Positions 18,012-55,625 of a stretch of 64,000 nucleotides of DNA are shown piece by piece. Position 1 is the stretch's first letter. The number at the start of each line of letters is the position of its first letter. The translations under genes and the position numbers were made by a program. Origin of the DNA: Cyanidioschyzon merolae (taxonomy: Eukaryota); the NCBI GenBank assembly GCA_000091205.1, contig AP006490.2; one strand, 5' to 3'. Under the pieces are notes generated by a model, which saw only the letters and a program-made list of their open reading frames with translations, ran no database searches and was not told where the DNA came from.

Positions 18012-18031
18012 TAGTGCCCTCGCGAACGCCA

Positions 18032-19501: not shown

Positions 19502-22500
19502 CGCTATGAGCCGGCACTACAGTGAGCGAGAAGCGTCGTTCCTGCCAAGTTTGGGGCGTAGGACACCATACCTCTTCCACCGCATCGTACAAGACGAGAT
19601 TCTTGAGACCGTCGACGCAGTAAAGCCTTCCTCTCACGCGCTGGCGCTCGTCCTGGAGCAGCACTAGAAGTTCACGGTGAAGCAGTGACTCAAGGAACGC
19701 CCTTCCTTCGTTCGCATTGTGGACGCCCATGAGTTTGTAGACGTCTCACCTGTAAAGCGAGATGCAAGAGCCTACGCAGCTACCGCTCTCAAAGTGAAGC
19801 ACATAGCTTGACGGCTAGCGCATTAAGATAACATTAATAGTTTGGATCTCTATTGTATGGGAACTCCGACCAGACGGAAGCTGCACACAAGCAGCAGCAC
19901 ACAGCCTGCCGTTCCTTGCACTCGAAAAAAACCTCATTTGTCTGCAGTGTTCCACGGGGGCGCCAGCCTCCCTCGTGGAGTGCGCACCATGGTGGCGTTC
20001 GCGAAAAACTTAATGTCCTCTTGTCTGAAGCCTGAAATCCCGTGTATTTATGGTGTATCAGTGCAAGTCTGAAAGGACATGCCCGTATACGCAAGCTCTG
20101 CCCGTGGTTAACGAGTGAAACTATGTTGTTTGACGCTTGCGATGGCATTGTTTAGCCTCCCTTTCACGGCCCGATCTAAGCGACTGTATCCCAAGCGCTC
20201 CAGCGAATGCCTCTGCTACGCCTGACAAACCGGGAAACCATGTCGTTAGATTGATCGAGCCTCCACATTCTCGGGTTTCATCATAAACTGGAACCGGTGG
20301 CTCGTAGGGACTCGTGTCAAGGTATTCATCCAGCCTTCACGCCGGGTGTTCATCTCCAAATGGAATTGGTTGAACGGAGGAGCGTCCGTGCTAAAGTCGG
20401 GATCTCCCAGTCGCTTTTATGTAGAGGAGTGAAATGCAGAACACGTATACAAGCACATTCCTCTCGGTCTTATTTATTTTTCCCATTGGTAGTCAACAAA
20501 ATCACTGTTGCGTTTGTACTAGAGAAAGACTGCAGAAAGACCTGATGCCCTCATTGCTGGACATCGAACAAACCGGCTTTACCTCTACAAGCCAGTTATT
20601 TGATGCTAAGCATGTGGACCTACCGCCCTTCTCGTAGTCCTCATTCTGAGCACCGAGCACCAAAAGCAGTACTCATCAGTCGCTATCTACACGACTGTCT
20701 CCTCCTCAATCATTTCCACTCGATTCTTTTTCGAAGAAAGACTACTGAGGAACCCACAAAACGGTGATCACCCTTTTCGTCCATACGAAGGAGACAAAGA
20801 AACACGGACTGATAGCAATAAAATCGCGCTTCTAGAGGAGACCGTCGAGGTTTTTTGCAGTATGCTGTCGCTTTGCGAATGAAATGAGAACGTTCGTTAC
20901 GGTACGGACGGTTGTTCGTCTCATTTGATGCGGCTTCATTCAGGAGAAATGCTAGACCTATTAATAGGTAATCAGAAGAGTGCAAGCGAATGCTATTAAA
21001 GCCGAGAGGAGCGAGAAGGACGATAACAGCTCTAATCGCGATTCAAACATATGGTTGCGTCCAAATTGTCCAATGGACATTATTGTGCAGCACCGTATCC
21101 TTCACTGAAGCACTCATCCAGTCTTTCTTCATACATTCTTGTGTCCTGCTATCAGACAGCATCGATTCCCTTGTCTTAAAAGAGGGCAATTGTACGCAGG
21201 CAGGATTCGCACTCAGCTGCTCTTCGTCCCAGCATATTATCCCTGGTTGTGTCATGTCGTCAGCATTAACCACCTTGTCAAACGACACTTCTACCCTACA
21301 GCTGCAGTAGACGAGTCAATCGCAACTGTTGCACCATTCTTCGAAGAGTCTTTGAAGGAGAATTTGTGTCCAGTGTTCATTTGTCCTGAACTGATTTGTG
21401 GCTCCTCTGCTTGTCGCCGGGAAAGAGCCGAAAGGCTCGCAAAGTTTCGATATCTTTCTCGCGATGTGGTAAGTGACGAAGATATTCCTGAAGATTGATA
21501 AGCTACAGCGTTGGACATGATGGAGTGCGCAATGCCCGTGCTCATACTCCTTCCAAAAGAGCATAGAACGTGTGAAGAAAATCTATTCTCTACGATTTTC
21601 ATCGATGAGTTCAGGTTGACACACGCATTACGAGCGCGGATGCACGCTGAAACTGATACGGAAGTCGACAGTGCAACAGGAGCCGATACACGAGCTGTTG
21701 TATGGTAAACTGACCAACAGCGAGATTACGAAGCCATCAAAGGCAAGAGACTTGATATTACGTGATTTCAGTAGTAATTATGCGCACGAGCACCTTCTGC
21801 ACAGAGACTTGAAAGCTCTGATCAAAATCCGGAAATGGTCCCGGCCTCCAGAGCGCCCAGTTCCTTTATGCCAAGCGAAATTTCGAGCAATTGTTTTTTG
21901 CACAGTGTGGTCACGAAGTTGAAACGAGAATGATTTGCCATTATAAGAGTCAATTGCAAAGAGAGAGGACGGTGGATTCTCGCACGGAGTGAGGTACTAG
22001 AATGGTACGGTCCACATTTCAAGGCTGGAGCGCTATTTATCCAACGCAAATGGCGTCGCTGGGCACTTAGCAGACGATAATGGTGTTCATTTGTTCGATA
22101 TTACTGAGCATGCATATAGCTATCCCTGATTTGGCAAATTTTAATTACACTCATCGATTCTGCAGCCGAAACTCTACGACATCTGGCCTTCCCAAAGCGC
22201 GCGCGTCAGTCATATTATCGAAAAGACGCTGGTCTGCTACAATTTGGCTTGCTTGTTCTGCTCCCCGATCGAGACTCTTCGTAAGAGTTTGCTCGCAAAT
22301 ATCAACCGCTCTGGCTGTATCGAACGTCGCTTTGGTACAGGCGTCTATGATGTTGATGTCCGCAAGGCCCTGCTAAGCTAAAACCAAACGTTTCACGACG
22401 ATCGAGGAAAGCTTTTCAAACGAAACGCTGCATATTCGTGGGAGAGTTTGTATCGAGATTAGGCGTATTGCACCGATCGAGCATCGAGAAATAGACGACG

Positions 22501-24337: not shown

Positions 24338-24422
24338 GCTGAGAACCCGCTGCCGACAGCGAACGCCTTTCAAAAGAAAAACGTTGCTGCCGGCGGTGGA
24401 CAGGAGCAGCGAGGAAGCCGCC

Positions 24423-25527
24423 CTAGACAAGACGTCTCCAACTTACGTACAGACGCCTCCCAGTCTCTTTCGACCGGCCACCCACTACTGGTTCCAACTT
24501 TTTCTCATATAATCCTACCTTAAGCGGTTGTCCAACAAAATATTCTCTTGTCAACTCCGGAGGTCTTCTTTCCATCACCGCACATTTCCTTATATTGATA
24601 GCGGCGTTAAAGTTTCGATTCACAAACTGCATGCGTTTCTTGCCATTGGTAGTTGGACTCACTAGTGCAAGTAGTCCACGAACTTTCGTCCTCCTTTCCA
24701 CTTGCTCTTTCGTCAGCGCTCCGAACATTTTTATATCCTCAGGGGTCTGCTGGCACTTTTCATCTCCAATCTCTGACGTTTACACCCCAATTGGTGGTGT
24801 GTATTGGTCGTTCGGAACTCATCTATCGGTATCGTGACGAAACGGTATGCGCACTCCTTGTACGCTCGTGTCGTTGGAGATGGCGCACACCTTTTTTTCG
24901 ACGCCCAGCGCCTTGCTCCGTATGCCACTACGAGCCTCTGACTCTTGTGCTCCTTCAGGGCGCTCAACTGATTGAAAAAGTTCGCGAGCGCGCGCCGCTT
25001 CCCACAATACAGGTTCACACGCAGAGGAGCCCACCGGCGATTTGTATACTCTTTCCACAGCGCCTCCCAATGAGCAGCGCGAACTTCCATGAATTTCAGA
25101 AAAGTCTGAAAGTCCGCTCCGCGGCTCGTCACCTCGCTCATAGCTTCCAGGTGGTCCTTCATTCCTTCGTTCCACATCTCGATTTTCTTCCTCGCATTCA
25201 TCATACCGGATTCTCGATAGTATCTCGCTCTCGAGAGCTTTAAAAGACGCATGTCTTTCTGACTTAAGTTGCCTTCAATGCCTCTTCCGCGCGCTTGGGT
25301 GCTGCGATGGCTATAATATTCGTGTTTCTGGGGTCCGCGCCAACGACAACGTCGTTCTCATGTACTTCTCGCGTCGCATGACCCGCCTCCTTCTCATCTT
25401 CATGCTTCGCCGCATCAACGACAAAGTCGGTCTCCTGCACCTCCTGCGTCGCAGGTTCCGCATCCTTCTTTTCTTCATGCTTCGCCGAGTGCGAAGCCGA
25501 AGACGGAACTGGACGATCCGCCTTCAA
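24423..25527 (-). pseudogene. C-terminal catalytic half of TnpB/Fanzor-like protein in copy A (RuvC-I, RuvC-II region, degenerate zinc ribbon, RuvC-III), split across three frames
   Basis: frames change at 25264/25252 and 24731/24728; RuvC-III Asp position is Asn (NRNF) in this copy. Confidence 0.6.
25369..25520. repeat. ~75-nt imperfect tandem duplication inside copy A (mirror in copy B at about 33037-33188)
   Basis: duplicated peptide AKHEEKKDAEPATQEVQETDFVVDA / AKHEDEKEAGHATREVHENDVVVGA immediately N-terminal to the RuvC-I motif; copy C has a single unit. Confidence 0.5.
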
Positions 25528-27996
25528 GAGCCGATAGTGTGCACATACGGGTACTCCATCGCTTTCGGTTATCCCCGTGAATATCTTTTTCTTGCCCTTA
25601 TTGAGACGTTTGAAGTCGGATATAGTTTTCCAAGAAGTCTAGAGGTTTCCACCAATAGATGCCTCCCCGCTTACATCTAACTCCGAACTGATCTCCAGCA
25701 TTACGTTGTGAATGTCGCTGGCGTCGATTGTCACAAAATGTGACTTGACGCCGCCGAGAGCAACGACGCTGAAGCGCCTCTCCGGAAACACAGCCATCCG
25801 TTTCGCCGACTCTCTATTTTCCCCCTACTCATCTGCAGTTCGGCCTTGCGTTCGAATTCTCGGTTCAGGAACACGAAATAGCGCAGGATGAGGGGATAAT
25901 ATCTTTTTCCATATCTGATACCTATTCTGCTGGGCTGACCAGCCCCAGGACCGCACGGTGCTCTTGAGCAGCCGCAGGGATCACAGAAGCTGCATTCGTG
26001 CTCTTGGTTGATGTCTTCTTGTCGACAAATTCGATCTCCTGTCCATTCTTACTATCGTTCGTGATGCTGGCAATGATGGTCCATCTCGCCCAGTGTGAGA
26101 CGCCCAAGTAGAGAGCAAAATTGGAGCGTTTCATGAAGCGTTCCAGGTTCATGGCCATATGGGTCTTTAGGTTCGTGAGGGACTTGATCGCCCCGTATTC
26201 GTAAATACGCGAGTCACCCCTCTATCGAGTACCGTTGAAGCGGTAGTTGGAGTGATGTTCGTGGAGGGCATGTAATCGCTCATTTCTCATCGACATTTAC
26301 CCTGTGCCAAATATTAGGTCACCAATAAAGGTCTTGTTGAAAAACTCTTCCGGAATCTCGAATATTTTGATGTGCGTGACGTCGCGATACATCTCCCTCG
26401 CCATATACATCAGTCCCAAAGAGGCGTAATTAACACTCCTGGAGTACGACTCCACACGGTTTCTGACGGCCTTTTGCGTCTCTTGCTCGTAGGGGTCCTT
26501 GATATGTCCAAGAAGACAGGCGTTCACTACCATCTCGTCGTACTCTCATCTTTCATGCAGCATGTGACATCGGACCTCCTGCATCTGCTTCTTCGTTTTC
26601 TCGTGTTCCTCTTTGCTCGGCGCGGTTTTTCTTTTTTTCCCGGCGGCCGGCAACATCGGCCCTTCAGGATCCCGACTTGCATGTGCGCTGCTTTCCTTTG
26701 GCGTTTTTATTTCGTCAAGATGATCGCACGTCTTCTTGCTCTTAGATGGGGCCTTCTCGGAGGGAGGGGGACTTTCGCAAGAAAAGCGACATGTGCCCCC
26801 ATGTTTTAGCGTGTGCAGAACGCTCAGCGATTTACCCAGCGCAGTGTTCATCAAAATTCTCGATAGAAAACGCTCCTTAGATGCGGCCGAACCACGGCGT
26901 GTACGAAGTAATGAGAAGCAACCCTATCCCTACAGATTCGGCAAAGACTCGAACGCAAGGGGAACGGTAAAACATCACGTTGCCCGACAGAGGGATGTTT
27001 CCAGACGTCAGGGGAAGAGTCTGCAATGATTCGACGCAGTGGTCGGTACCGTTGTATGACCGCTATCTACGAGCGAAGCTGAGGCCACCAGATGAATCCA
27101 CTCCACCCGTACCAGATGATATTCTCGTTCTCTTTGAGTTCGATCATACACACTATGGGCGCCCTGCTCCGCGAATACCCATGTACGCTCCGACAGTATC
27201 GTCCGAAGCAAGTCTCATTGACTAGAAAAACAAATCGATGCCCCTGCGCTTCAAACCGATCGCGACGATCCGAAGACGCTGTTGTTGCGATGTCGTTGGA
27301 CGATGGCCGAGCGTGAAATTGGTATTCGTTTTTCCGACTGTATCGCAGTGATTTCAGGACCACACGAACAAGCTGGTGAGTAAGAGAGACACCCGTTGTG
27401 GCTTCTATCATCGCTTTTGCCTTCCACGCGGTGATGAATCGGTTGTTTTTTACCACGGACCCCAAGCACGCTTTGTGAATATCGGTTTTTTGATACGGAG
27501 CGGGTGTAGTGGTTTCTTTCGGTGTTCCTCAACCAGCTGAGTACTCTCGAAAGACTGACCTGAAGGAGGAATACATTACTTGCACGCTTCAGTCAAGGAT
27601 ATATATCCTACATGCAAATCGCCTATGTTCTATACGGTACATTGCAGAGTGATATCGATCTCCTCCTATACACTGCAGCAGGGGTGAAACGTAATTGAGT
27701 TGAAAGAGCGCAGCTGGGAACATCGACTGTGTCGCAGTTCGCGCGCCCTGTACCGCCATTGAAATCATCGCGATCGCCGCGCTAGCGCGGGACACCATCG
27801 ATCCGATCCGCATGGCAGCTCGCGGGACGTCATCGATCCAACGGAAAACTATTTTTCGACGGACTGCTCGCATCATGAGGGTCTTTGAGAGCCTCAAATA
27901 TTAGGCTGAAGTGAAGTTTCGCTAACAATTTGGGTCCTTGCTGCTTTAAGTTGAGGTGTTTTGGTTTAGTGAGCACCTCATCTTGGGACGAATTGG

Positions 27997-30300
27997 ATGA
28001 TCCCCCGAAAACTTCCAACCAGCGAAACTCGATCGAAGCCTCCGAGCTTCGGCCATAGAGCTGGACAACGTCACCGCACGCAGCTTGTGGAACGTCAGGG
28101 AGGTCAGGAGTGGAAACACGATCATTTGGGAGAGTCCACAGAAGGCCGGTCGGTTTGTTCCTGTGAAGCTTGCCGGACACTGAGCCTAGCCGGTTTCCCG
28201 AACAGCAGCAACAGCAGCAACAGCAGCAACAGCAGCAGCAGCAGCCTCTCTGAGCTCGAGGACCGTCCACAGTGTATTGGTGGCTACTCTAGTTCTAGTG
28301 GTGGGGCCGCAGAAGGAGTCGATCAATACGTATGGGAACTGCATGAGGGTTTCAATATGGGGACACCAACCCAAACAATACAGCGTCCTGCTGAGTGTCC
28401 TAGCTTCGGTTACGGTGCTTTTCGTTCCAGACGAGCAGACTCTGGAAGCGAGCCCCTTGCTAATGAACCACTCGAAACCATGCGGGACCTCTCCATTCAT
28501 GATGCCGCGTCTCATGATACGCAAAAGCTGCCATCGATGAAGCACCGCGCTGGAGACGTGAGCTCAGTTACTGTTCCGTCAACGAATGCTAAATTTGCGG
28601 TAGCAGGGCATTCGGATGCACCGAAAATTTTCAGTTCTCCTGAGGCGGAAGCACGCCTACTGCCCTGTAGCTCATACGCAGACTCGGCTACAACGGGCTC
28701 TTCTTCATTGCATGAAGGCTTGGTTCAGCTTGATGTTGTCGATTATCGAATGCGCATAGTCTCGAAACAAATTTCGAGCAGCATGCCTGTCTACGAAACT
28801 AGGCAACTCTCAACGTCCCGCGCGAGTTCTCGGAACACGGCGGTGCTTGGACGTCTCTGGTCAGTCGCGTCACTTGGAGTCAACAGACCTAATGAGGACC
28901 GTTGGCACGTAGAACGCCAGCGTCTGATATGCGATTTCCAGTCATACGCGCCTTTCAAGCTTTCGCAAGCCAGTCTAAGATCTGAGGCGGGCACAAGCTC
29001 GGTCGCCGCTCTCAAAAGCGTGAAATGCAGCGGATCGGCTGTGGGTTTCACACGACCAGCAACTCCGCCTGGGAGTCACGATGTGGCAGAGTGTGAAGTC
29101 GCTGACTGCGACAGCGGTTTCGAATCTGATGACTCGTTTACGGTGGGCTTGTTTGATGGACACGAAGGAGCCACGTGCTGCGAGCTAGTTGGCGAACTGC
29201 TTCTAGAAACGATTCGAGACCGATGCACTAAGAATGGAAAATATACGACTATGCTCCAGGAGCTTGGAATTGAAGGCTTTGCAAGATGTCTGATAGAGAC
29301 GTTTGAATTTGTCGACAAGAAGATCCTGGAGCTCCTCTGGGAACATCTAGAGCGAAGTGGCGACGGACATTTTGCAATAACAGGAGCCTGTTGCATAACA
29401 GCAACGCTGATGAATGGTGGAAGGGATCTCTTCGTTGCCTCGCTAGGAGACTGTGAGGCCTATTTGGGCCGTCGATGTTGCGCGGCTGCGGAGCTCCCGC
29501 ATCCTCAAGAAGGAGCGAATAAGCGTATGGCTCGAAAAAATTTCGAAGCGATTCGGCTGTGTCGCTCACATAATCTTCGAATCAGCGAGAATTCGAAAGC
29601 TCTCATGGAGCGGTTTCCCAACGATCCCTCCGTAGTGCAGAAAATAGGCAATAATTTTTTCGTCAAAGGCAAGCTGCAGGTATCGCACGCCTTTGGAAAT
29701 GGATACCTGAAAGAGCAAAGATTCAACGAGCGACTCTACCCTATTTTTAGGGCGAAGTCACCTTACTGTGGAGGATACGTGTCCGCAACTCCGCATGTTG
29801 AGCATGTGTCCTTGATGGATCGGGACGAATTTCTGATTTTAGGAACGGATGGATTCTGGGAGAACGCTGAACCAGAGGTAGTCGTCGAGCTTTTGGGTCA
29901 CTTTTTTCACGATCGGGAGATTCTGGAGGGGAATCTAGACCAGATCTCAATAGATCCAAGAAGGGCAAGCGAGCTCTTGATGCAGTACGTGTGGCTTCGC
30001 CTCCACGACAGTATAGAACCCGCGAGCTTGCGTACAGCGGGCCAGACTGGTGGCAAAAGCAGTGGAAGCTGTGCTGCTGAGCCGCGCCCTCAGCTTCGTG
30101 ACGACTGCTCAGTTCTGGTTTTATTCCTCCGTCCAACGGAGATCGGGGATGCAGAAGAAGCCATATCATACACAGGCAATATGGATTGTACAGATTTTTG
30201 TGAGCAACTAGATGGTGATACCAAGGAGCGCATTCAACGTCTGCGAGCATCGATTTCCGAATGGATGCGCACATATGGCGAGCATTCCGATGAAATATGA
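27997..30300 (+). CDS. protein phosphatase 2C (PPM family), 767 aa; catalytic domain in C-terminal half, long low-complexity N-terminal region
   Basis: ATG at 27997; PP2C motifs …GLFDGHEGATCCE… and …LGTDGFWEN…; (SNS)n tract encoded by an (AACAGCAGC)n repeat. Confidence 0.85.
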   Translation: MIPRKLPTSETRSKPPSFGHRAGQRHRTQLVERQGGQEWKHDHLGESTEGRSVCSCEACRTLSLAGFPNSSNSSNSSNSSSSSLSELEDRPQCIGGYSSSSGGAAEGVDQYVWELHEGFNMGTPTQTIQRPAECPSFGYGAFRSRRADSGSEPLANEPLETMRDLSIHDAASHDTQKLPSMKHRAGDVSSVTVPSTNAKFAVAGHSDAPKIFSSPEAEARLLPCSSYADSATTGSSSLHEGLVQLDVVDYRMRIVSKQISSSMPVYETRQLSTSRASSRNTAVLGRLWSVASLGVNRPNEDRWHVERQRLICDFQSYAPFKLSQASLRSEAGTSSVAALKSVKCSGSAVGFTRPATPPGSHDVAECEVADCDSGFESDDSFTVGLFDGHEGATCCELVGELLLETIRDRCTKNGKYTTMLQELGIEGFARCLIETFEFVDKKILELLWEHLERSGDGHFAITGACCITATLMNGGRDLFVASLGDCEAYLGRRCCAAAELPHPQEGANKRMARKNFEAIRLCRSHNLRISENSKALMERFPNDPSVVQKIGNNFFVKGKLQVSHAFGNGYLKEQRFNERLYPIFRAKSPYCGGYVSATPHVEHVSLMDRDEFLILGTDGFWENAEPEVVVELLGHFFHDREILEGNLDQISIDPRRASELLMQYVWLRLHDSIEPASLRTAGQTGGKSSGSCAAEPRPQLRDDCSVLVLFLRPTEIGDAEEAISYTGNMDCTDFCEQLDGDTKERIQRLRASISEWMRTYGEHSDEI
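28201..28246 (+). repeat. trinucleotide-type microsatellite (AACAGCAGC)n/(AGC)n inside PP2C coding sequence
   Basis: aacagcagcaacagcagcaacagcagcaacagcagcagcagcagc; produces poly-Cys/poly-Leu shadow ORFs on the opposite strand. Confidence 0.8.
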
Positions 30301-30856
30301 ACATCAGCACAAACCTGAAGATGCAGCCAGTCGTGCATATTGTGAAGCGGTCTTCTCGTTCCTAGTTGTTACTGCAGGAGATTGCTTGTCCGGCTGATGC
30401 TGGGTCTCACGTATGTTAAGGGCGAGAGCAATCAAAGTGTAACCTCCGTCGAATGACAAAGGGAGCGCAACGATTGCACCTCTGTGGAACGCGGAACTCA
30501 CTGCTCTCAACGCTTCGCAGAACGACGTGGGCCATCAGCTCGGTGCGCATGTTTGCTTTGCAGCTCTCGAGAATCAAATGAACTGCTGGCGTAGCGCAAA
30601 ATAGTGCCCAATTCGCGCGCTAGTGCTTGCGTAAATTTACAAATCGTCGGGATAGAGAATTTCTCAAGTCGGCGTCAGAACAGCCCGTTCTGCCACAATC
30701 CTACACGGTGCAGCTCCACATAAAACCCTTTTCCCAACCGATCCACGAATCCGACAAGACTTTTGCTCACTTGTGGCGCAATTCTGCGAAACATGGACTG
30801 AGCAAAGGAGAAGAAGGAGCCTGTCGCTTATTCTCGTGTACAACTAACGTCTTTCG

Positions 30857-33800
30857 AATCAATTACGTTTCACCCCTGCTGCAGTGTATAGGAGGAGATC
30901 GATATCACTCTGCAATGTACCGTATAGAACATAGGCGATTTGCATGTAGGATATATATCCTTGACTGAAGCGTGCAAGTAATGTATTCCTCCTTCAGGTC
31001 AGTCTTTCGAGAGTACTCAGCTGGTTGAGGAACACCGAAAGAAACCACTACACCCGCTCCGTATCAAAAAACCGATATTCACAAAGCGTGCTTGGGGTCC
31101 GTGGTAAAAAACAACCGATTCATCACCGCGTGGAAGGCAAAAGCGATGATAGAAGCCACAACGGGTGTCTCTCTTACTCACCAGCTTGTTCGTGTGGTCC
31201 TGAAATCACTGCGATACAGTCGGAAAAACGAATACCAATTTCACGCTCGGCCATCGTCCAACGACATCGCAACAACAGCGTCTTCGGATCGTCGCGATCG
31301 GTTTGAAGCGCAGGGGCATCGATTTGTTTTTCTAGTCAATGAGACTTGCTTCGGACGATACTGTCGGAGCGTACATGGGTATTCGCGGAGCAGGGCGCCC
31401 ATAGTGTGTATGATCGAACTCAAAGAGAACGAGAATATCATCTGGTACGGGTGGAGTGGATTCATCTGGTGGCCTCAGCTTCGCTCGTAGATAGCGGTCA
31501 TACAACGGTACCGACCACTGCGTCGAATCATTGCAGACTCTTCCCCTGACGTCTGGAAACATCCCTCTGTCGGGCAACGTGATGTTTTACCGTTCCCCTT
31601 GCGTTCGAGTCTTTGCCGAATCTGTAGGGATAGGGTTGCTTCTCATTACTTCGTACACGCCGTGGTTCGGCCGCATCTAAGGAGCGTTTTCTATCGAGAA
31701 TTTTGATGAACACTGCGCTGGGTAAATCGCTGAGCGTTCTGCACACGCTAAAACATGGGGGCACATGTCGCTTTTCTTGCGAAAGTCCCCCTCCCTCCGA
31801 GAAGGCCCCATCTAAGAGCAAGAAGACGTGCGATCATCTTGACGAAATAAAAACGCCAAAGGAAAGCAGCGCACATGCAAGTCGGGATCCTGAAGGGCCG
31901 ATGTTGCCGGCCGCCGGGAAAAAAAGAAAAACCGCGCCGAGCAAAGAGGAACACGAGAAAACGAAGAAGCAGATGCAGGAGGTCCGATGTCACATGCTGC
32001 ATGAAAGATGAGAGTACGACGAGATGGTAGTGAACGCCTGTCTTCTTGGACATATCAAGGACCCCTACGAGCAAGAGACGCAAAAGGCCGTCAGAAACCG
32101 TGTGGAGTCGTACTCCAGGAGTGTTAATTACGCCTCTTTGGGACTGATGTATATGGCGAGGGAGATGTATCGCGACGTCACGCACATCAAAATATTCGAG
32201 ATTCCGGAAGAGTTTTTCAACAAGACCTTTATTGGTGACCTAATATTTGGCACAGGGTAAATGTCGATGAGAAATGAGCGATTACATGCCCTCCACGAAC
32301 ATCACTCCAACTACCGCTTCAACGGTACTCGATAGAGGGGTGACTCGCGTATTTGCGAATACGGGGCGATCAAGTCCCTCACGAACCTAAAGACCCATAT
32401 GGCCATGAACCTGGAACGCTTCATGAAACGCTCCAATTTTGCTCTCTACTTGGGCGTCTCACACTGGGCGAGATGGACCATCATTGCCAGCATCACGAAC
32501 GATAGTAAGAATGGACAGGAGATCGAATTTGTCGACAAGAAGACATCAACCAAGAGCACGAATGCAGCTTCTGTGATCCCTGCGGCTGCTCAAGAGCACC
32601 GTGCGGTCCTGGGGCTGGTCAGCCCAGCAGAATAGGTATCAGATATGGAAAAAGATATTATCCCCTCATCCTGCGCTATTTCGTGTTCCTGAACCGAGAA
32701 TTCGAACGCAAGGCCGAACTGCAGATGAGTAGGGGGAAAATAGAGAGTCGGCGAAACGGATGGCTGTGTTTCCGGAGAGGCGCTTCAGCGTCGTTGCTCT
32801 CGGCGGCGTCAAGTCACATTTTGTGACAATCGACGCCAGCGACATTCACAACGTAATGCTGGAGATCAGTTCGGAGTTAGATGTAAGCGGGGAGGCATCT
32901 ATTGGTGGAAACCTCTAGACTTCTTGGAAAACTATATCCGACTTCAAACGTCTCAATAAGGGCAAGAAAAAGATATTCACGGGGATAACCGAAAGCGATG
33001 GAGTACCCGTATGTGCACACTATCGGCTCTTGAAGGCGGATCGTCCAGTTCCGTCTTCGGCTTCGCACTCGGCGAAGCATGAAGAAAAGAAGGATGCGGA
33101 ACCTGCGACGCAGGAGGTGCAGGAGACCGACTTTGTCGTTGATGCGGCGAAGCATGAAGATGAGAAGGAGGCGGGTCATGCGACGCGAGAAGTACATGAG
33201 AACGACGTTGTCGTTGGCGCGGACCCCAGAAACACGAATATTATAGCCATCGCAGCACCCAAGCGCGCGGAAGAGGCATTGAAGGCAACTTAAGTCAGAA
33301 AGACATGCGTCTTTTAAAGCTCTCGAGAGCGAGATACTATCGAGAATCCGGTATGATGAATGCGAGGAAGAAAATCGAGATGTGGAACGAAGGAATGAAG
33401 GACCACCTGGAAGCTATGAGCGAGGTGACGAGCCGCGGAGCGGACTTTCAGACTTTTCTGAAATTCATGGAAGTTCGCGCTGCTCATTGGGAGGCGCTGT
33501 GGAAAGAGTATACAAATCGCCGGTGGGCTCCTCTGCGTGTGAACCTGTATTGTGGGAAGCGGCGCGCGCTCGCGAACTTTTTCAATCAGTTGAGCGCCCT
33601 GAAGGAGCACAAGAGTCAGAGGCTCGTAGTGGCATACGGAGCAAGGCGCTGGGCGTCGAAAAAAAGGTGTGCGCCATCTCCAACGACACGAGCGTACAAG
33701 GAGTGCGCATACCGTTTCGTCACGATACCGATAGATGAGTTCCGAACGACCAATACACACCACCAATTGGGGTGTAAACGTCAGAGATTGGAGATGAAAA

Positions 33801-34202
33801 GTGCCAGCAGACCCCTGAGGATATAAAAATGTTCGGAGCGCTGACGAAAGAGCAAGTGGAAAGGAGGACGAAAGTTCGTGGACTACTTGCACTAGTGAGT
33901 CCAACTACCAATGGCAAGAAACGCATGCAGTTTGTGAATCGAAACTTTAACGCCGCTATCAATATAAGGAAATGTGCGGTGATGGAAAGAAGACCTCCGG
34001 AGTTGACAAGAGAATATTTTGTTGGACAACCGCTTAAGGTAGGATTATATGAGAAAAAGTTGGAACCAGTAGTGGGTGGCCGGTCGAAAGAGACTGGGAG
34101 GCGTCTGCACGTTAGTTGGAGACGTCTTGTCTAGGGCGGCTTCCTCGCTACTACTGTCCACCGCCGGCAGCAACGTTTTTCTTTTGAAAGGCGTTCGCTG
34201 TC
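30857..34202 (+). mobile_element. Fanzor/TnpB-like element, full-length copy B (mirror of copy A), sense on plus strand
   Basis: exact reverse-complement of copy A apart from about 4 substitutions and a 6-nt gacagc duplication near 34196-34207; ORF pieces 31092..31490, 31703..32011, 32024..32260, 32399..32635, 33030..33293, 33305..33826, 33829..34134. Confidence 0.65.
33030..34134 (+). pseudogene. C-terminal catalytic half of TnpB/Fanzor-like protein in copy B (mirror of 24423..25527)
   Basis: identical translation to copy A except one residue (…RRLHVSW… vs …RRLYVSW…). Confidence 0.6.
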
Positions 34203-34386
34203 GCTGTCGTGGCCTGCACAGAGCGAGCGCTCAGGATATTCTTCTAGCAACTAAGGTGTCCTGGGTTGAAAGCCTGGTATCCTGCGCAGTCAGAAGTACT
34301 TTTACTGGCACGTGATGATTGGAAGCAGTGGAGCTGTGCTCCGGGGCTTCCAGGTTTCGACTTCGTGATTCAGAGCCAGCTTCAAA

Positions 34387-37300
34387 ATGCTTCACTATGA
34401 AAAGACTGCAGCGGCGGAGATTCTGAGAGGCGGTAACAGCCTGGCAGTGTTCAGTCGCGGCCTAGACTTAGGTTCTCTCGTTGCCATCGTTGCAGCGGAA
34501 AAGCTTCTGCTAAGCGAAGGGAGACCTATTTTGGCACTCAACTTCCCGAAAACTGTTTTTCAGCGACTTGGCCGTCTGCTAGCGACGCACCCTGCAAAAT
34601 TCCCGATCCACCTGCTCCCAAGACATGTGAGTTCCAGCGTTTCAGCGGTTGAACGCTTCGAAGTCTACGGATGTGGAGGAATCATCGCTGCCACACCGCG
34701 AACTTTGGCTGTGGACCTTCTTACAGCAGTATCTCAGCTGGGTGATCACGGGGCAAAAAAAGTCCCCACGCTGAGTTTTCTGGGTATTCTGATTTATAAC
34801 GCACATGAAATCTCAGAACATCGAAGCGAAACTTTTGTAACGCGTCTTTTTAGAGAATACGTAGGAAGATGTGAACTGGAGGATACCTTCATACACGCCT
34901 TTAGTGACGCGGCACCAGCATTGTGCCGCGGATTTCACTCAGCAGAAAAACTGATGCGCCTTCTCGGACTCGAAAGGTTACTGCTTTATCCTCGTTTTCA
35001 CGTTGATGTCGTTACCTCCCTTGAGCACAAGACAGAAAATCCACAGAGCTACGTAGATGGAGGTTATGGGACTCATTCCTCATCGAGCGCGGGAATAGAG
35101 TTGCTGGAATTGCATCAGCCTATGACTGCACTGATGAAAGCCATTCAGGACGAGATCCTTGTGCTCATGCGATCCTGCTTTTTCGAATTAAGACGCAGTT
35201 CGCCGGCCGCGGAACTAGATGAGAGTGATTTGAGGGTAGCGGCTACCAGTAGGAGCATCTTACAAGCCGCCCAGCGCATCGGGCAAGAATGGCGGCGATT
35301 GAATTCTCGTAGCAGGCAGCTGTTGCAGGATATCCAGAACCTGAATAGCATTCTTTCGAGTCTGCTGGACGATGACTGTGTCACATTTTTGGCATATTTA
35401 GAGTCATTGAGGGATACACAAGGAGCGACCAGTTTGTGGATGGCGATGGAATCGGCGCAAAATCTGTATAGACTGGCCAGGGAGAGAGTCTTCCGAGGCA
35501 CCGACACTGGGGGAGACTCCAAACTAATGGGAATGCAGGATGCAGCGCTTGACCTACGAGCCAGCGAGACTGGTGAGTTACCGTTCGAATTCAGCCAGAA
35601 GCTTGTCTGTCCGGAACCGAACAGCAAATGGGAACTTTTGAAAGAGTTACTTGATGAAGTTGTAAGTATGCTCATGGGTCATCAGAGGCATGGAAACGTA
35701 TCGGACGCATCGACTCGTCGAGTTCTTGTTCTGGGGAGAGAGCCCTGCACTATTCAGTTTCTCGCCGAGTATCTCCACTATCGTGAAGGCGCTTTCGACG
35801 CATTGCATCGACGACTGCTTTTGTATCTTGGGACGAAATCCGGTGGAAAAGCCCGTGAGTCTGTCAGACCGACGACGGCAACAATGTCGAAAGCGGTGCC
35901 GTCACTTAGGGTCAAGTCAGATGCCATAGATGCCTCGCAATCCTCGTCGAACGCGGAAAGTGAGCACTCGAGCGCTTGTACTGATATGCGACAACACGCA
36001 CCAAATCAGAGGATCACAGCAGAACACGATTCCCCTGGGCAGAAATTCGGTCACCTACAGGGCGATGCCGCAGGGCATGCATCCCCCCGCGAATCAGCGT
36101 CGGATAACTACAATTCAGCTCCCGCGCATGCCAGTAGTGCCGTGTCGCAGTGTGCAGATGCAGCGCGTGTAGAGATTTTGCTCAAATCCTATGGCAGGAG
36201 ACAGAGCAGCACGGGCGTTGAAAACCTCATCGGACCCTCCACCATACTGCCTTTCTTGCTGGATTCGCAACCGTGTTCAATTATTATGTTGGATCCTACC
36301 CTGCAACACGTCCGAGAAATCGAAGTATACCAAGCCGCTTACTCGAGATTTGCAAAGATCCGGGTCTATGCAGTATTTTACGAAGAATCCCCCGAATATG
36401 AGCTATATTGTAATGCAATAGCAGATGAGAAGCACGCATTTCAAACCTTGATCCGCCATAAGGCGTCGATGGCCGTTCGACTCGATCAGAGCTCTGCCGT
36501 GGCTGTACCGGATACTGGGCCCGAACGCATTTATTGGCCACTTTGGGCGGGATCCCTTGCGAAGGCGGATAGACCTTCGCCCTCGTCTGGACGTCCCCAG
36601 ATTCTTGTGGATGTACGAGAATTTCGCTCGACGCTTCCTGGTTGTCTGTATCAAGCGGGATTCGAGCTGCTTCCTCGGACCCTGAAAGTAGGGGATTATG
36701 TACTCACACCGGATATTTGTGTCGAGCGCAAAAGTATCCCGGATCTGACGAGTTCTTTGGCGTCTGGGAGACTTTATACGCAATGCCAAGCAATGTGTCG
36801 ACTATATAGATACCCGTTGCTGATGATCGAGCTCCAGGAAGATGACATCGGGAGCACGGGAGCGAAAGCACATGTGACAAATCTGTTCGCGCCTAGTCTC
36901 TCCTTTCAGGAGAATTCCTCGCATGGTCCTGCCACGGGAATCGGGAAACTGTGCCTACTGACAATTCATTTTCCTCGTCTACGCCTACTGTGGTGTCGAG
37001 GTCCCCAAGCAGGTGCCGAAGTGTTTGGCACATTAAAAATTGGGGAAGCGGAACCGTCGGGTGAACCGACGGGCCAGATTTCAGGCGAATCCGAAGCGAC
37101 CGAGGACTCATCCGCAGAAGCTTCACTTTATTCGGTGATGAATGCACGAGACGCTTTCGCTATGCGTCCTTTTGACATGCTTCGTTGTCTGCCTGGCGTC
37201 GAGAATGCAACTGTGTTTGCGCTCATGCGCCAGTTTCGAACGCTGACGGATCTGGCGAACGCTGAAGCTGATAATATGGCGAAGCATTTCGGGCCGACTC

Positions 37301-42089: not shown

Positions 42090-42425
42090 ACCGCATCTTC
42101 AAGAGTTTGCGGTCGAGCATCGAACCGGAATCCGCCGCTACACGATACCTTCTATGTCAGAATAGAATGGAGCGGATCCTCTTCGCTAACTCTGGAGTAC
42201 GCACTAAAATTTTGCTCTCATGTCACCGTCATCAGAGGAAGCCTGTGTGGCCCTTATCTGCAACTGCTTCCTTTTCGTCTCTCGGATCTCCGGCTTTCAC
42301 CAGGCTGGTCTTTTATTTTCCTCTATATCTATTGCCAGCAACAGAAGCATACTCATGACTGCTTTAGAGTCCAGATTTCACTACTTCCGGCCGGCGTTCA
42401 TGCATTCCATGCACAGTAAAGCGGT
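42090..42425 (+). repeat. copy 1 of a ~330-nt non-coding repeat (about 75% identical to 55270-55625, same orientation)
   Basis: nucleotide-level similarity extends beyond the small ORFs 42220..42429 / 55399..55638 on both sides; the shared translations are only about 40% identical, so conservation is not protein-level. Confidence 0.45.
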
Positions 42426-45514: not shown

Positions 45515-46717
45515 ATGGGAAGAAACGAGAGCGCCGGCATGAACTGGTCGGCCTACGCGGGAATCACGCTTAGACTTCCGTGGACAGAGAGCGGGGTCGT
45601 AGAGGCAGCGCATACGCCAACCGATGCCCGTGTGTGCGACCGGAGCACGCCGGTCGGACTCACGGAAGTACCTGTCTTGCGTCACTCAGACCAAAGCAGC
45701 GTGTTTGTGAACCGTAGTGGGGCCTCTTCGGGAGACGATTGCAGCCCTGCGTCGGTGCATCTTGAAACCGGGCAGGATGCAGTGTTTCTACGCCATTTTC
45801 CGGAATGGGCACGGGATGGAAGACACGAACGGCATACTTTGGATTCCGCATCGACAATGCGCTTGTACTTTTCAAAGTCAGCCGATATTTTTGAGGACTT
45901 TTCGAATCAACGCAAGCTCTGCCCGTCGCCATCCGCTTCCCTAATCTCCTGGAGTGCCGAAATTAACAATGATCGCGAAAAGGGCGATCTAGTCGGGCGC
46001 ATACTCAGTGCCGCTTTGTTGAGCTGGGTCGCGGACAACGAACAGACGAGAGCGAGAGGAATGCAAATGCAGGAAGCATCACCTTTCCATGCCAGTCGAA
46101 TACCATCTATCTCCGTGGAGGCGTATTTCGAGAGGATCTACACGTTTGCTTTCTGTAGCAAAGCATGTTACGTGATTGCGCTTCTGTACCTGGATCGTCT
46201 GAGCGCTCGCAATGCGAACCTCGCGCTGACAAGCTTTACCGCGCACCGCCTGCTCATCACAGCTGTTATGCTCGCCGCCAAATTCTTCGACGATATTTTT
46301 TACAATAATGCGTACTATGCCAAGGTTGGCGGTCTGCCCCTGTCTGAAATGAATGCTCTTGAAGTTCGAATGCTGCGAGAGCTATCATACCAACTGAATG
46401 TATCAGTGGAAGAATTTTACAATTTCGAGAGCATGCTCATCAATAGAGCCGTCAGATCTGCCCCGGAACTTGGTCGACAACTGTCCGAGTCAGGGTTTCC
46501 GCTCCACCATACTCTTTGGCATCCACTCAGCCCTAGTTTGCCCATACCGCCGGCATGGGGCAACTTATGCCAGAATGCTCCTGGAAATGATCCGCAGACT
46601 CCGAAAGTTGTCGCCGGGTGGCCATGTGTATGGATCAAACAGCCGCTGCAGATAGACTGCCCCAAAATAGAGGGTGCAATGCATGCGGAGAGCAGGCGTG
46701 TCTCATATTGGCACTGA
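45515..46717 (+). CDS. PHO80-like (P/U-type) cyclin, about 400 aa from first ATG
   Basis: cyclin box …YFERIYTFAFCSKACYVIALLYLDRL…FTAHRLLITAVMLAAKFFDDIFYNNAYYAKVGGLPLSEMNALEVRMLRELSYQL…; track ORF starts with GTG at 45326. Confidence 0.75.
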   Translation: MGRNESAGMNWSAYAGITLRLPWTESGVVEAAHTPTDARVCDRSTPVGLTEVPVLRHSDQSSVFVNRSGASSGDDCSPASVHLETGQDAVFLRHFPEWARDGRHERHTLDSASTMRLYFSKSADIFEDFSNQRKLCPSPSASLISWSAEINNDREKGDLVGRILSAALLSWVADNEQTRARGMQMQEASPFHASRIPSISVEAYFERIYTFAFCSKACYVIALLYLDRLSARNANLALTSFTAHRLLITAVMLAAKFFDDIFYNNAYYAKVGGLPLSEMNALEVRMLRELSYQLNVSVEEFYNFESMLINRAVRSAPELGRQLSESGFPLHHTLWHPLSPSLPIPPAWGNLCQNAPGNDPQTPKVVAGWPCVWIKQPLQIDCPKIEGAMHAESRRVSYWH

Positions 46718-46726
46718 CAGCGCAAG

Positions 46727-47521
46727 CTACTTTGGAGACCAGGGGCGCAGAGCGCTCCAAGACTTTGGATCGGAAACAGCAAACTCTAAAAGACAAGCTC
46801 CAATCGCATGGCCATCCTGTGGAACCTTAAGGCTAGCCGCTGCACTCCAATACGCGTCAAGTTTGAGTCTGCCCCTTTCAAGACTTGAAGAAAGCAGCGC
46901 GGGCATGAGTTCGGTCGTTGCGCCAAACTCAGGATGCCCCTGCAGGCACAGAATACGATCTTCGGGAAGCAAGTATCCTTCCACAGGACAAGATGGACTC
47001 GACGCCAATAATACAGCACCTGGCGGAAGTACCTGCACTTCGTCAAAGTGGAAGTATATCAGACAAACCGTGTCCGCGTCCAGGGTGCCCCCCGAGAGCC
47101 GTCGGAACAGCTCGCGTCCACGAGCAGTCAGCTGCGTCGAGACGCAACCAACCTCCGGGCCGGCGGCTACGGACCCGCACTTTCCACCCAGTGCCTCCGC
47201 TATGACCTGGTGGCCAAAACAGATCCCCACAAGGGGAATTCGACCACGTGCTCTTTGGATATTGTGTTTGAGCGTTTGAATCCACAGGTCTTCATCGTAC
47301 GCTGAGGAAAAAGAACCGCTTATGAACACGGCCCTCAGAGAGGAATCATCGAGATCAGGGAACTCACCCCGTGCTGCCTCATACCGTGTGTAGACCAAGT
47401 TCTTCTGTCCTGTTTGTTCAAAAAGTTGGACAAAGGCATCGAAAAACCCGCTGCAGCCTGTTCGTTGTTTCACAGCTTCCGGCAGCGTTTGGCAGTCAAC
47501 AACAGCTATTTGATCTATCAT
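46727..47521 (-). CDS. class I glutamine amidotransferase-like protein (GATase1 domain), 264 aa
   Basis: ATG at 47521; nucleophile elbow …LVGICFGHQVIAEALGG… and downstream His/Glu region; stop 9 nt from the convergent cyclin stop. Confidence 0.75.
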   Translation of the reverse strand: MIDQIAVVDCQTLPEAVKQRTGCSGFFDAFVQLFEQTGQKNLVYTRYEAARGEFPDLDDSSLRAVFISGSFSSAYDEDLWIQTLKHNIQRARGRIPLVGICFGHQVIAEALGGKCGSVAAGPEVGCVSTQLTARGRELFRRLSGGTLDADTVCLIYFHFDEVQVLPPGAVLLASSPSCPVEGYLLPEDRILCLQGHPEFGATTELMPALLSSSLERGRLKLDAYWSAAASLKVPQDGHAIGACLLEFAVSDPKSWSALRPWSPK

Positions 47522-47594
47522 ACATAAACGAAAAGATGCGGAGAATGCCTTGCACTGTACTGTTCTCTAGACACTTCAGGACGCCCTTTGCGCG

Positions 47595-50510
47595 TCGACA
47601 CAAGCGGTCGTGCCCGCGAGCAGCAGCGTACCCCAGTGTGTGAGGGCGAGGCAACGAAGGTTTCAACGGAGCGAAAACGTTTCGCGACTGCAGAGTACAC
47701 CAATACCGACGTACAGACGCCTCCCCGTCTTTTTCGACCGGCTGGCTGCCATCGGCTTCAGCTTTTCCTTGTACATTTCGACCCGGAGAGGTTCCCCCAC
47801 AAAATTGGCTCTTGTAAACTCCAGAGGTCTCCTCTCCGGCACCGCACATCTCCATATATTTGTAGCGGCGTTAAAGTCTCGATTCACGAACTCCATGCGT
47901 TTCTCTCCGTTGTGGCTGTACTCAATAATGTGAGTAGTCCTCGAACTTGAGCCCTCCGCTCCATTTCCTGTTCTGTCAGCTCTCCGTGCTTTTCTATATC
48001 CTCAGCGCTCCGCCGGCACTTTTCCATCTCGACCTGCTGAAATTTACACCCCAGCTCGTGGTGTATACATGACGTTCGAAACTCATCTACCAGTATTGTG
48101 ACAAAACTGTGTGCGCACTCCTTGTACGCTCGTGTCGATGAAGCTGGTATACTCCTTTTTTGGGAACCGAGCGCCCTGAACCGTATGCTATGATGAGCCT
48201 TGGACTCTTGGTCTCTTTGAGAGCGCTCAACTGATTGAAGAGATTGGAGAATGCATGTCGCTTCCCACGGTACAATTTCATACGCTGACGAGCTCAGCGG
48301 GGCTTTGTGTACTCTTTCCCCAGCTCCTCGTGATGAGCAGCTCGTGTTTCCATGAACTCTAGAAAAGCTTGAAAGTTCGCTCCGCGGCTCTTCACATTAC
48401 TGATCACTTCCAGGTGCTCCATCGCTCCTGCGTTCCGTTTCTCACTTTTTTCCTTGCATTCATTATTCCCCATTCTCGGTAGTATCTCGCTCTCGAGAAC
48501 ATTAAAAGACGCGTATCGTTTCAGCATAAGTTGCCTTTGGTACCATTTTTGCTACATTTGGGAGCAGGGATGGTCATGATGTTCGTGTTCCCAGGGTAAA
48601 GGACTACGACAACGTCGTTCCCCTGCAGCTCCTGCGTCGCAAGATGCGCCTCCTTTTCTTGATGCCTCGCCGAGGACGAAGCTGTAGACACAATAGGACG
48701 ATCTGCCTTCAAGCGCCGATAGTGTCCATACATGTATACTCCATCGCTTCCGATCATCCACGTGAACACCTTTTTCTTGCTCATTTTGCGACGTTTGAAA
48801 TCGAAGATATATCTACAAAATGACTCACGGTTTTCGCCAGTGAACTCCTCCCTGCTTACATTGAACTCCGAGCTGATCTCCCTCATGATACCGTCATGGG
48901 CTGCGAAGTCGATTGTCACAAAGTGCTACGTGATCTCGCATATCGGAACGACATGGGAGCGCTTCCCCAGAAGCGCAGCCTTCCGTTTCTCCGACTTTTT
49001 TCCCACAACCGGCTCCATTTCGGCCTTGCGTTCGAGTTCTCGGTTCACGAACGCGATGCAGCCCAGGATGAGAGGATAAAATCTATTTTCATCTTTGTTT
49101 CATATCTGATACCTATTCTACTGGGTTGACCAGCCCCAAAACTGCACGTTGCTCTTGAATAGTCGCACGGATCACAGAGGCGTCATTCTTTCCTATGTGT
49201 GATGTGTTCTCGTCGATGAATTCGATCTTCTTTTCATTCTTACTATCGTTAGCGATGCCATCGACGAGGGTCCATCTTGCCCTGCGAGATACGCCCGGGT
49301 AGAGTGCAAGTGTGAAGCGTACCATGAAGCGTTTGAGGTTCACGATCATGTAGTTCCTCAGGTCCGTGAGGTACTTGATCTCCCCGTAGGAGAAAATATC
49401 CGCGTCACCCCTGTGTCTAGTACCGTCGAAGCGGAATACGGGGTGAATTTCGTGGAGTGCACGTTCTTGCTCATTTCTCCTGGAGGTTTCCCCAATGCCA
49501 AATATCAGTTGACCAATAAAGGTTTTGCTGAGAAACCCTTCCGGGACATCGACTGTTTTGATGTGCGGCACGTAGCGATACATCTCCCTCGCCATATGCA
49601 TCAGTCCCAAAGAAGTGTTACGAACACTGTTCGCGAAGGAAGCGACACGGTTTCTGATGGCCCTTGCATCTCTTTTCTTGTACAGATCCTTTATACGGCG
49701 TTGAAGACAGGCTTTCACCAGCATCTCGTCGCACAGTTCTCTTTCGTGTAGCGTTTGACGTTGGGCCTCCTGCTTCTGCTTCTTTGTGTTCTCGTGTTCC
49801 GCTTTGCTCGGCACAGTTTTTCGTTTTTTTTCCGGCGGCCAACGACACCGTCCCTTTAGGATATTCTACTTCCATGTCTATATCCATGAGCGAAAGTGAG
49901 GCCGCCGAATAAATCCTCTGCAGATAGAACGGATGATGTCCTCTTTCTCATCGAGCTCGATCATACGCACAACGGACTCCCTCTCCGCAAATAATCACAC
50001 ACGCTCCGACCGGTTCGCCCGAAGCAAGTCTCACTGACAGAAAGGAATCGACTTCCCTGTGCTTCAGACCGATCGCAACGTTCCAGGAAAGCTGTTATTG
50101 CGAATTCGATGGAAGACAGCCGTGGGTGAACTAGGGCTCTGTTTTTGTGACAGTATTCGATTGTTTTCAGGACCACACGAACAAACTGGTGAGAAATGAA
50201 GGCGCCCGTTATGGCTTCTATCGTCGCTTTTGCCTTTCATACGATGAAAAATCGGTGGTTTCCTACCACGGACCGAAAGCACGCTTTGAGAAAGCCGGCT
50301 CTATGGCGCAAAGCGAATACATTTGTTTCTTTCAGTGCTCCCCACCCAAATGAGTACTGTGGTACGACTGGCCAGAAGGGGAAAGGCAATCTTTCTGGCA
50401 CTGTCCAGTGAGGAGTACATGCTACAGGCAATTCGTCTACGATCTATAAGGTACGTTGCATCGTGATTTCGACTACATAACATACACCGCAGCGAGGATG
50501 AAATAATATT
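47595..50510 (-). mobile_element. Fanzor/TnpB-like element, full-length diverged copy C (about 70% nt identity to copies A/B), sense on minus strand, interrupted
   Basis: Collinear ORF pieces 50301..50525, 50064..50282, 49113..49814 (233 aa, spanning three pieces of copy A), 48521..48919 (RuvC-I region, VVVVLYPGNTNIMTIPAP), 48294..48527, 48087..48281, 47663..47896 (MEFVNRDFNAATNI). Terminal nucleotide homology to copy A at both ends was aligned by hand. Confidence 0.6.
47663..48919 (-). pseudogene. C-terminal catalytic half of TnpB/Fanzor-like protein in copy C; RuvC-I Asp replaced (GADP to VLYP), private nonsense codon after …KEYTKPR
   Basis: same frame-shift position between RuvC-I piece and next piece as in copies A/B; stop where copies A/B encode Trp. 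Confidence 0.55.
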
Positions 50511-55269: not shown

Positions 55270-55625
55270 GTTAAAAAAATGACGTTTGCTAAACCCGCAT
55301 CGTTGCGCGCTCGAAAGTGCGGCTTTGCGATCATGAAATCTTCGGCAGAATGAAATGGAACTGATTCAGTTCGTAAACTCGGGAGTACACACCAAAACTT
55401 GATTTTCTTGTCACCATCATCGAGGTCAGTCTGTAGGGGCATTGTCTGGAACTGCTTCCTTTTCCTGTCTCTTATCTCCGGTTTTCAATACACCTGCCTT
55501 TTATTTTCATCCAACTCTATTGGCATCTGCAGAACGATATTCGTAACAGATTTAGTGACCAGATTTTGCTGCTTGCGGCTATGCGTCGAGCGATTTTTGG
55601 TGGTCTCCATTCAGTACGCAGCGTG
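55270..55625 (+). repeat. copy 2 of the ~330-nt non-coding repeat (see 42090-42425)
   Basis: hand alignment, e.g. aactcgggagtacacaccaaaacttgattttcttgtcaccatcatcgagg vs aactctggagtacgcactaaaattttgctctcatgtcaccgtcatcagagg, and ctgcttccttttc…tctccggytttca…cttttattttc core. Confidence 0.45.

Follow-up and report, generated by a model that had tools for sequence, protein, structure and literature searches.

Transposon-derived promoters are known from bacteria, in which insertion sequences (IS) carry outward or hybrid promoters, and from eukaryotes, in which long terminal repeats, miniature inverted-repeat transposable elements and Helitrons have donated promoters to host genes. The promoter-targeting elements Tf1 of S. 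pombe, Ty1/Ty3 of yeast and TRE of Dictyostelium are retrotransposons that are tethered by contacts between integrase and host factors, typically at positions 100-400 nt or more upstream. In bacteria, TnpB is carried by IS200/IS605 elements, which insert into single-stranded targets. Here we describe the right (3') ends of a Fanzor1 transposon family, CMe-1A, in a 64,000-nucleotide stretch of chromosome 8 (739,753 bp) of Cyanidioschyzon merolae 10D, hereafter the window, and at other loci of the same species. These ends lie directly upstream of host genes, on the strand of the gene, far more often than random insertion predicts. The element itself is known and the placement bias is apparently new to the literature. 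We regard it as a new example of a known phenomenon, in which a transposon end is situated at, and probably contributes to, host promoters.

C. merolae is a model minimal photosynthetic eukaryote whose genome is almost without introns, and its one abundant repeat has been described as scattered at random, with no known role. This WSV486-like interspersed repeat was reported as 253 transcribed copies of 3.2 kb with a truncated WSV486-like open reading frame (ORF) (Nozaki et al. 2007, PMC1955436); it makes up ~5% of the genome, and its distribution is given in the literature as random. CMe-1A was described as the Fanzor1 family of C. merolae, ~3 kb in length, without terminal inverted repeats, with an undetermined target duplication and without an assigned class, and TE-N2_CMe equals its 5' 635 bp (Bao & Jurka 2013, PMC3627910). 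The repeated element of the window is CMe-1A and is the WSV486-like repeat, so it has already been described. Organism, size (~3.2-3.35 kb), lack of terminal inverted repeats and the Fanzor1 protein all agree, as do the many copies diverged by ~20-35% and the separate 5' part, ~640 bp of which also occurs alone at two other loci. What differs is the distribution, since the published accounts give it as random and do not describe a strand-specific placement of the right end before ATGs.

Self-BLAST and measurement of the spacers placed the 3' ends of four of the six window copies (A, B, C and D) close upstream of a host start codon, and each of the four is co-directional with its downstream gene (Table 1). 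This proximity had been proposed in an earlier note on this DNA, with spacers of 18, 185, ~75 and ~165 nt. Those measured here (16, 183, 74 and 128 nt) agree within the uncertainty of the D terminus, and the host gene names XPF, MT-A70 and amidotransferase were recovered by Pfam. Two other statements of that note had to be corrected. Its count of four in five copies missed the sixth fragment, F, and its remark that the orientations are not all the same was wrong and at odds with its own text. The 3' boundary of A and B matches the family terminus of six other copies, ...GAAAGGCGTTSGYTGY, and the same sequence was used to locate the termini of C (47596) and D (14478) by homology, within ~10 nt.

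In order to obtain an independent sample, public metagenome contigs were scanned with a 28-nt block from the end of the Fanzor ORF, which is conserved in every copy, and contigs encoding Fanzor relatives were added. The block has five matches in the window, where none is expected by chance, and was found in 25 metagenome stretches. All sampled contigs are from the same species, those overlapping the window being 97-99.9% identical to it. Removal of window loci and duplicates left 11 well-preserved new copies, for a total of 17 copies and two degenerate fragments. As a null model, the six copies were removed from the 18-gene map of the window, and insertion at a random intergenic position in random orientation was considered. 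The chance of a 3' end falling at most 60 nt upstream of a same-strand ATG is then p=0.017, and at most 250 nt upstream p=0.07; an approximate calculation for the whole genome agrees with both. Within 250 nt lie four of the six window copies (P=3e-4, a post hoc figure), and within 60 nt lie five of the 11 independent copies (P=6.6e-7), a proportion that by binomial estimate still gives P ~0.003 at a deliberately generous p=0.1. Over all 17 copies, a gene boundary is found within 250 nt of the 3' end in 11, and it is a same-strand start in 10 and a stop in one (one-sided P ~0.006). Counted over all distances, the orientation is 10 starts versus 4 stops (P=0.09). In six copies, only 16-57 nt separate the terminus from the ATG.

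The right ends of CMe-1A are thus shown to be placed non-randomly, strand-specifically and directly upstream of host genes, with the statistical excess next to gene 5' ends that a promoter-targeting transposon would show, and the published random distribution does not hold at this fine scale. The effect is specific to the 3' end of the element, because the 5' ends of the window copies lie 289, 549, 1351, 2116 and 2443 nt from the nearest gene.

Chance in a compacted genome, in which every insertion that survives between genes would be near a gene end, with the window pattern as a post hoc selection, is a very unlikely explanation. Tight junctions free of transposons do exist in the window: start codons 20-60 nt apart in FHA and ALG6, a 13-nt overlap of TIP49 and CMH023C (5897-5909), and ~10 nt between the stop codons of the cyclin and amidotransferase genes (46717-46727). 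Moreover, without the element the spacer between CMH030C and the PP2C gene would be only ~305 nt, the terminus of copy G adjoins a stop codon, and the orientation count over all distances is only 10 to 4. Chance does not, however, account for the recurrence of the pattern in the independent sample, nor for the length of upstream regions elsewhere in the window, which is typically 1-2.5 kb, and compaction would not be expected to produce a difference between the 3' and 5' ends of the element.

Table 1. CMe-1A copies, parts of copy B and host genes in the window, and copies at other loci (distances are from the element terminus to the ATG unless stated)
Feature	Location	Strand	Description	Distance (nt)
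Copy A	24354-27707	-	3354 bp; self-BLAST; inverted twin of B; tail 24354-24422	16
Copy B	30850-34203	+	3354 bp; self-BLAST; Fanzor1 CMe-1A pseudogene	183
Copy C	47596-50521	-	2926 bp; older subfamily; broken ORF; 67-nt tail 47596-47662	74
Copy D	13823-14478	+	Internally deleted; short internal piece joined to last ~280 nt of ORF and tail	128
Copy E	~1665-2314	-	Deletion type as in D	
Copy F	21620-21853	+	Degenerate Fanzor C-terminal fragment, 33% amino-acid identity	
28-nt block CCGGTCGAAAGAGACTGGGAGGCGTCTG	34080-34107	+	End of Fanzor ORF, conserved in every copy	
Non-coding right-end tail of B	34135-34203	+	69 nt, TAG stop to element terminus; putative omega-RNA/right-end region	
Unique spacer B-XPF	34204-34386	+	183 nt; ATG at 34315 opens 17-codon upstream ORF	
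XPF/ERCC4 gene, BAM79736	34387-37425	+	Pfam ERCC4; ATG past copy B	183
CMH030C, BAM79734	23573-24337	-	ATG at 24337, past copy A	16
Class-I glutamine amidotransferase gene, BAM79740	46727-47521	-	Pfam GATase; ATG past copy C	74
MT-A70/ZZ methyltransferase gene, BAM79731	14607-16487	+	Pfam MT-A70 and ZZ fingers; ATG past copy D	128
PP2C phosphatase gene	27997-30300	+	Pfam; between 5' ends of A and B	
Copy H	L031	same as gene	M13 peptidase, BAM81861	30
Copy N	L051	same as gene	SMC1, BAM80064	48
Copy O	L053	same as gene	Glyoxalase-family gene, BAM81814	49
Copy P	L055	same as gene	RNase P Rpr2 (Pfam E=3e-15)	57
Copy R	L058	same as gene	eIF5B	42
Copy Q	L056	same as gene	CMD088C	~249
Copy J	L033		Unannotated 217-aa ORF starting 56 nt inside tail; ambiguous, not counted	
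Copy G	L029	convergent	MYB-related gene, BAM78953; terminus touches TGA stop codon	
Copy M	L050	convergent	Stop codon of convergent gene	470 (to stop)
Copy I	L045	convergent	Convergent gene	~1 kb
Copy K	L044		Retrotransposon debris; no adjacent start	
Fragments S, T			Degenerate, in transposon-rich DNA	

The earlier note had offered two explanations, a preference for insertion into open promoter chromatin, which it favored, and a supply of promoter or 5'-untranslated region (UTR) activity by the element end. Transposons of compact genomes commonly target promoters (Tf1, Ty1/Ty3, P elements and mPing), and 10 of the 17 copies do lie upstream of a gene start, as orientation-blind insertion into open chromatin would have it, with accessible, nucleosome-free promoter DNA as the target and proximity to the ATG as a by-product. 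Such insertion predicts both orientations, however, and 5' ends that abut starts as often as 3' ends do. The 10 starts versus 1 stop at the 3' ends and the remote 5' ends of the window copies are not what it predicts, and the argument made for it leaned on the mis-stated orientation. We therefore consider it unlikely.

Strand-specific insertion, always in one orientation and either at transcription start sites or immediately before them, is the main alternative, possible but doubtful, and deals better with these observations. It might proceed through single-stranded DNA in a transcription bubble or R-loop. If insertion is targeted in this manner, the tail would need no role for the host gene other than leaving it intact. 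The spacers of 30, 42, 48, 49 and 57 nt form a tight cluster, as if a defined position had been hit, and the co-orientation of the close cases is predicted by a strand-specific mechanism. The lack of terminal inverted repeats (see also PMC3627910) and of a recognisable target-site duplication is like that of single-strand transposons. In these two respects, and in the possession of a TnpB-type nuclease and strand-specific insertion, CMe-1A resembles the IS200/IS605 'peel and paste' elements; it differs from them in that no Y1 transposase was found, no subterminal hairpin was validated and no tetranucleotide is conserved at the left end. Enrichment near gene 5' ends is likewise shared with Tf1, Ty1/Ty3 and TRE, from which CMe-1A differs in its spacers of 16-57 nt, its fixed orientation and the lack of a known integrase or transposase.

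Several observations count against targeting. The element copies yielded no transposase of any type, and the 5' ORF has no Pfam match. No motif is common to the 5' or the 3' flanks, and the five left-end flanks share neither a motif nor a conserved target tetranucleotide. The copies are 52-86% identical over their last 350 nt, where all pairs except A/B differ by at least 14%, and there is no young copy among them. The earlier note had suggested a comparison with orthologous loci lacking the insertion. This was carried out on the 24 strain contigs around the window, which are 97-99.9% identical to it; all carry copies A-D, and no empty (pre-insertion) site was found among them. Finally, essential genes downstream of a targeted insertion would still need a promoter, which returns the question to the tail.

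The explanation that we prefer, and to which we give an even chance, is that the downstream genes draw their core promoter or 5' leader from the right-end tail. It is drawn from the geometry of the junctions, since a literature search turned up no usable start-site or 5'-UTR data for C. merolae. Transcription must start before the ATG, and a core promoter would need further tens of bases upstream. Where only 16-57 nt are available, some or all of the core promoter would have to come from the right end, and possibly the start site and 5' leader as well. The core promoter would overlap element DNA at SMC1, eIF5B and Rpr2, because the ATGs of these essential genes are only 42-57 nt beyond the terminus. 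The SMC1 ATG is taken to be genuine because the protein begins MGRIQRLEVENFKSY, the canonical SMC N-terminus. In copies A, D, H, N, O, P and R, no other ATG comes between the terminus and that of the gene. The tails were also examined for freedom from ATGs as a sign of a 5' leader, with results that were inconsistent between copies.

It is hypothesized that the right end became suited to this role through the guide RNA. In Fanzor and TnpB systems, this RNA arises from transcription that crosses the right end and enters the flank, and the right end may thus be an outward-reading unit. Sense copies just upstream of a gene would be tolerated and later depended on, and antisense or promoter-destroying insertions would be purged. 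The importance of the 3' end is further suggested by the deletion derivatives D and E, which retain precisely this end. According to one report, genes marked by trimethylation of histone H3 at lysine 27 are not situated beside repeats (PMC5405695), which we count in favor of the promoter or leader role. Compared with other transposon-derived promoters, the arrangement is the same, in that an element end just upstream of a gene and in the same direction would supply initiation signals. The putative donor differs, being the right end of a Fanzor element whose host genome contains hardly any other repeats.

If the tails do serve in this way, there would be a reason why a streamlined genome keeps ~250 dead copies, and C. 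merolae would give a specific example of host transcription reusing the guide-RNA end of an RNA-guided transposon. Some C. merolae promoter cassettes taken as an 'upstream region' would contain transposon tails, which calls for caution among their users. The junctions in Table 1 make it testable where and how omega RNA is transcribed in a eukaryote. A more far-reaching version, which we think quite unlikely, is that the Fanzor right end is a mobile promoter/leader cassette. Six of 17 copies, extrapolated to ~253, would amount to ~90 host genes, some of them essential, whose transcription begins within or at a right end. A guide RNA read from the DNA just past the right end would then match host 5' leaders, and an intact Fanzor protein acting in trans would gain an RNA-guided handle on these genes, leading to regulation or to addiction-like retention of the element.

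A number of observations weigh against a promoter or leader role of the tail. The sample is a small share of the ~253 copies in the genome, and the repeats are reported to be poorly expressed overall (PMC5405695). Copy G abuts a stop codon, copies M and I face gene 3' ends 470 nt and ~1 kb away, and E, F, K, S and T have no adjacent start. The role fits the placement better than open chromatin does, yet at copy B itself the 183-nt spacer with its 17-codon upstream ORF is long enough to hold a promoter of XPF's own. Whatever its origin, the DNA upstream of a gene may be able to act as a promoter in this genome, because junctions such as that of FHA and ALG6 (opposite strands, 18011-18071) have no transposon between start codons 20-60 nt apart.

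Strain variation points in the same direction. Divergence between strains is 3.8%, 2.7% and 2.3% in the spacers of B (34204-34386), C (47522-47595) and D (14479-14606), against 0.1-1.0% in the coding and intergenic DNA around them and 0.6% in the XPF coding sequence. The last 200 nt of the element also vary more between strains than neighbouring DNA does, and purifying selection on the element end was not detected at the occupied loci. Between copies, tails are more diverged than bodies, as in N and P, which are 95.7% identical over 3.7 kb and only 80% identical in the last 350 nt. Such variability of tail and spacer does not look like strong constraint.

Part of the raised tail divergence is explained by exchange between A and B, because in other strains the copy on the CMH030C side and the copy on the XPF side have traded the four differences between their tails (34108, 34113, 34150 and 34153). 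One strain has a mosaic copy A (contig L019, 1-481, equal to window 24835-24354), with only ~80% identity to 10D in the inner ~230 nt and near identity in the outer ~250 nt, a pattern that points to gene conversion between copies. The contrast between body and tail in N and P is similar. In contig L026, the XPF-side copy is linked to the opposite side of the PP2C segment, which represents either an inversion polymorphism of the ~9.8-kb A-B unit (24354-34203) or an assembly ambiguity across the repeat. Two further contigs (L010 and L011) follow the window from 57521 to 38331 and then, past position 19189, carry a CPSF73-like gene instead of XPF, owing to either a strain rearrangement or a chimeric assembly.

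The interval to which the earlier note drew attention, 34127-34390, comprises the last Fanzor codons with the TAG stop (to 34134), the tail, the unique spacer and the XPF ATG at 34387. In Fanzor elements, the guide RNA overlaps the right end and extends past the ORF (Jiang 2023, PMC10530073; Saito 2023, PMC10432273). The tails described here (67-69 nt) are conserved within subfamilies up to the terminus, which for copy B is ...GGCGTTCGCTGT. The 226-nt 3' region has a minimum free energy of -88.7 kcal/mol (z=-3.56) and folds better than all 200 shuffles. The element thus has the conserved non-coding sequence with a stable fold, from ORF end to terminus, that is characteristic of an omega-RNA right end. 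RNAalifold on six copies gave three pairs with double changes; the covariation term, +3.94, was unfavourable. The terminal hairpin of the tail, which is 67% paired, is no better than shuffles and has no covariation support in the six copies, and Rfam matched nothing in 33600-34500. The position of the tail suits a guide-RNA scaffold, which we regard as putative.

A conserved, structured non-coding stretch from the end of the nuclease ORF to the right end is the feature that CMe-1A has in common with the TnpB/Fanzor guide-RNA (omega-RNA/fRNA) module (PMC10432273, PMC10530073). The locus differs from that module in that most window copies encode dead nucleases; a role of the right end in the expression of neighbouring host genes is unreported for Fanzor. 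The deletion derivatives D and E retain only the 3' ~300 nt. Two motifs were recorded as leads only. An E2F-like TTTSSCGC sequence occurs in the loop of a GGCG...CGCC hairpin in five of 10 tails (G, H, K, N and P), in the region corresponding to ~34140-34155 of B, and a conserved CAATATAAGG, encoding NAAINIR, is located ~240 nt before the terminus. A 16-nt complementarity between the 5' flank and the tail of B (pair I3) was rejected, being missing in A and of chance quality.

The assignment to Fanzor1 was made through an intact relative, P0091, a 752-aa protein from a metagenome of the same species that carries GADPG, VDEFRTS and NRDFNAA. Single-sequence and shallow-profile searches for a relationship to Fanzor1 gave no match, and a deeper profile, built from P0091 and 46 relatives (A5), was needed. 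This profile matches the Fanzor1 structure 9cf0 of Parasitella (E=1.3e-21), the Spizellomyces Fanzor 8gkh (E=4e-12) and the Guillardia Fanzor1 9cer (E=5.8e-8). The catalytic columns D484 (GADPG), E656 (VDEFRTS) and D725 (NRDFNAA) are invariant across the family alignment. In Pfam, nothing scored above threshold for the element proteins, and sub-threshold Cas12f1-like TNB matches were seen in two relatives. For P0091, AlphaFold2 with a 21-sequence alignment gave a model with a predicted local distance difference test score of 36, too low for use. A Tc1/IS630-like transposase fragment had been suspected in the 5' part of copy B and was dropped when Pfam gave nothing.

Judged by their reading frames, the window copies are pseudogenes of this family, and the catalytic triad is not intact in any of them. 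Copies A and B, which are 99.79% identical with seven mismatches, are frameshifted and have NRNFNAA instead of NRDFNAA at RuvC-III; copy C retains NRDFNAA in an ORF split into five pieces. Copy C is ~75% identical to A and B and lacks a 380-bp insert present in both. The 5' terminus, TCTTTC..., is sharply defined, and A, B and C share it with two copies from outside the window; no terminal inverted repeats were found in the element. The 5' ends of A and B face inward and enclose the PP2C gene. The 4 kb that follow the 3' end of copy E contain no gene, and copy F faces the 3' end of CMH030C and adjoins no gene start. Within the Fanzor ORF, a 78-nt tandem unit (window 33070-33222 and 25335-25487) encodes a 26-aa acidic repeat (...HEEKKDAEPATQEVQ.ND.VVDAAK) that is present in two copies in A and B and in ~four in P0091.

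Two of the copies at other loci bear on gene ends in ways of their own. The 3' UTR of BAM78953 must run into the element, because the terminus of copy G touches its stop codon (L029, oriented coordinate 2749). The ORF that begins within the tail of copy J (L033, 939-1592) is coiled-coil, was called in 19 strain sequences and is unannotated in 10D. No annotation and no homologues outside the species were found for it, and its start codon may be transposon-derived.

CMH030C, whose ATG is 16 nt past the terminus of copy A, appears to be a real gene. Across strains it has seven variable codons with synonymous changes only and four with amino-acid changes (180 synonymous and 582 non-synonymous sites), a ratio of non-synonymous to synonymous divergence of ~0.18. 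TIP49 in the window is BAM79727. A 101-aa ORF with an LSM domain at 19425-19730 (minus strand) is kept in many strain contigs, has no NCBI entry for 10D, and is probably an unannotated gene. Two repeat pairs of 184-235 nt and ~74% identity, unrelated to the Fanzor element, are present at 10942-11125 and 59108-59291 and at 42158-42391 and 55346-55579.

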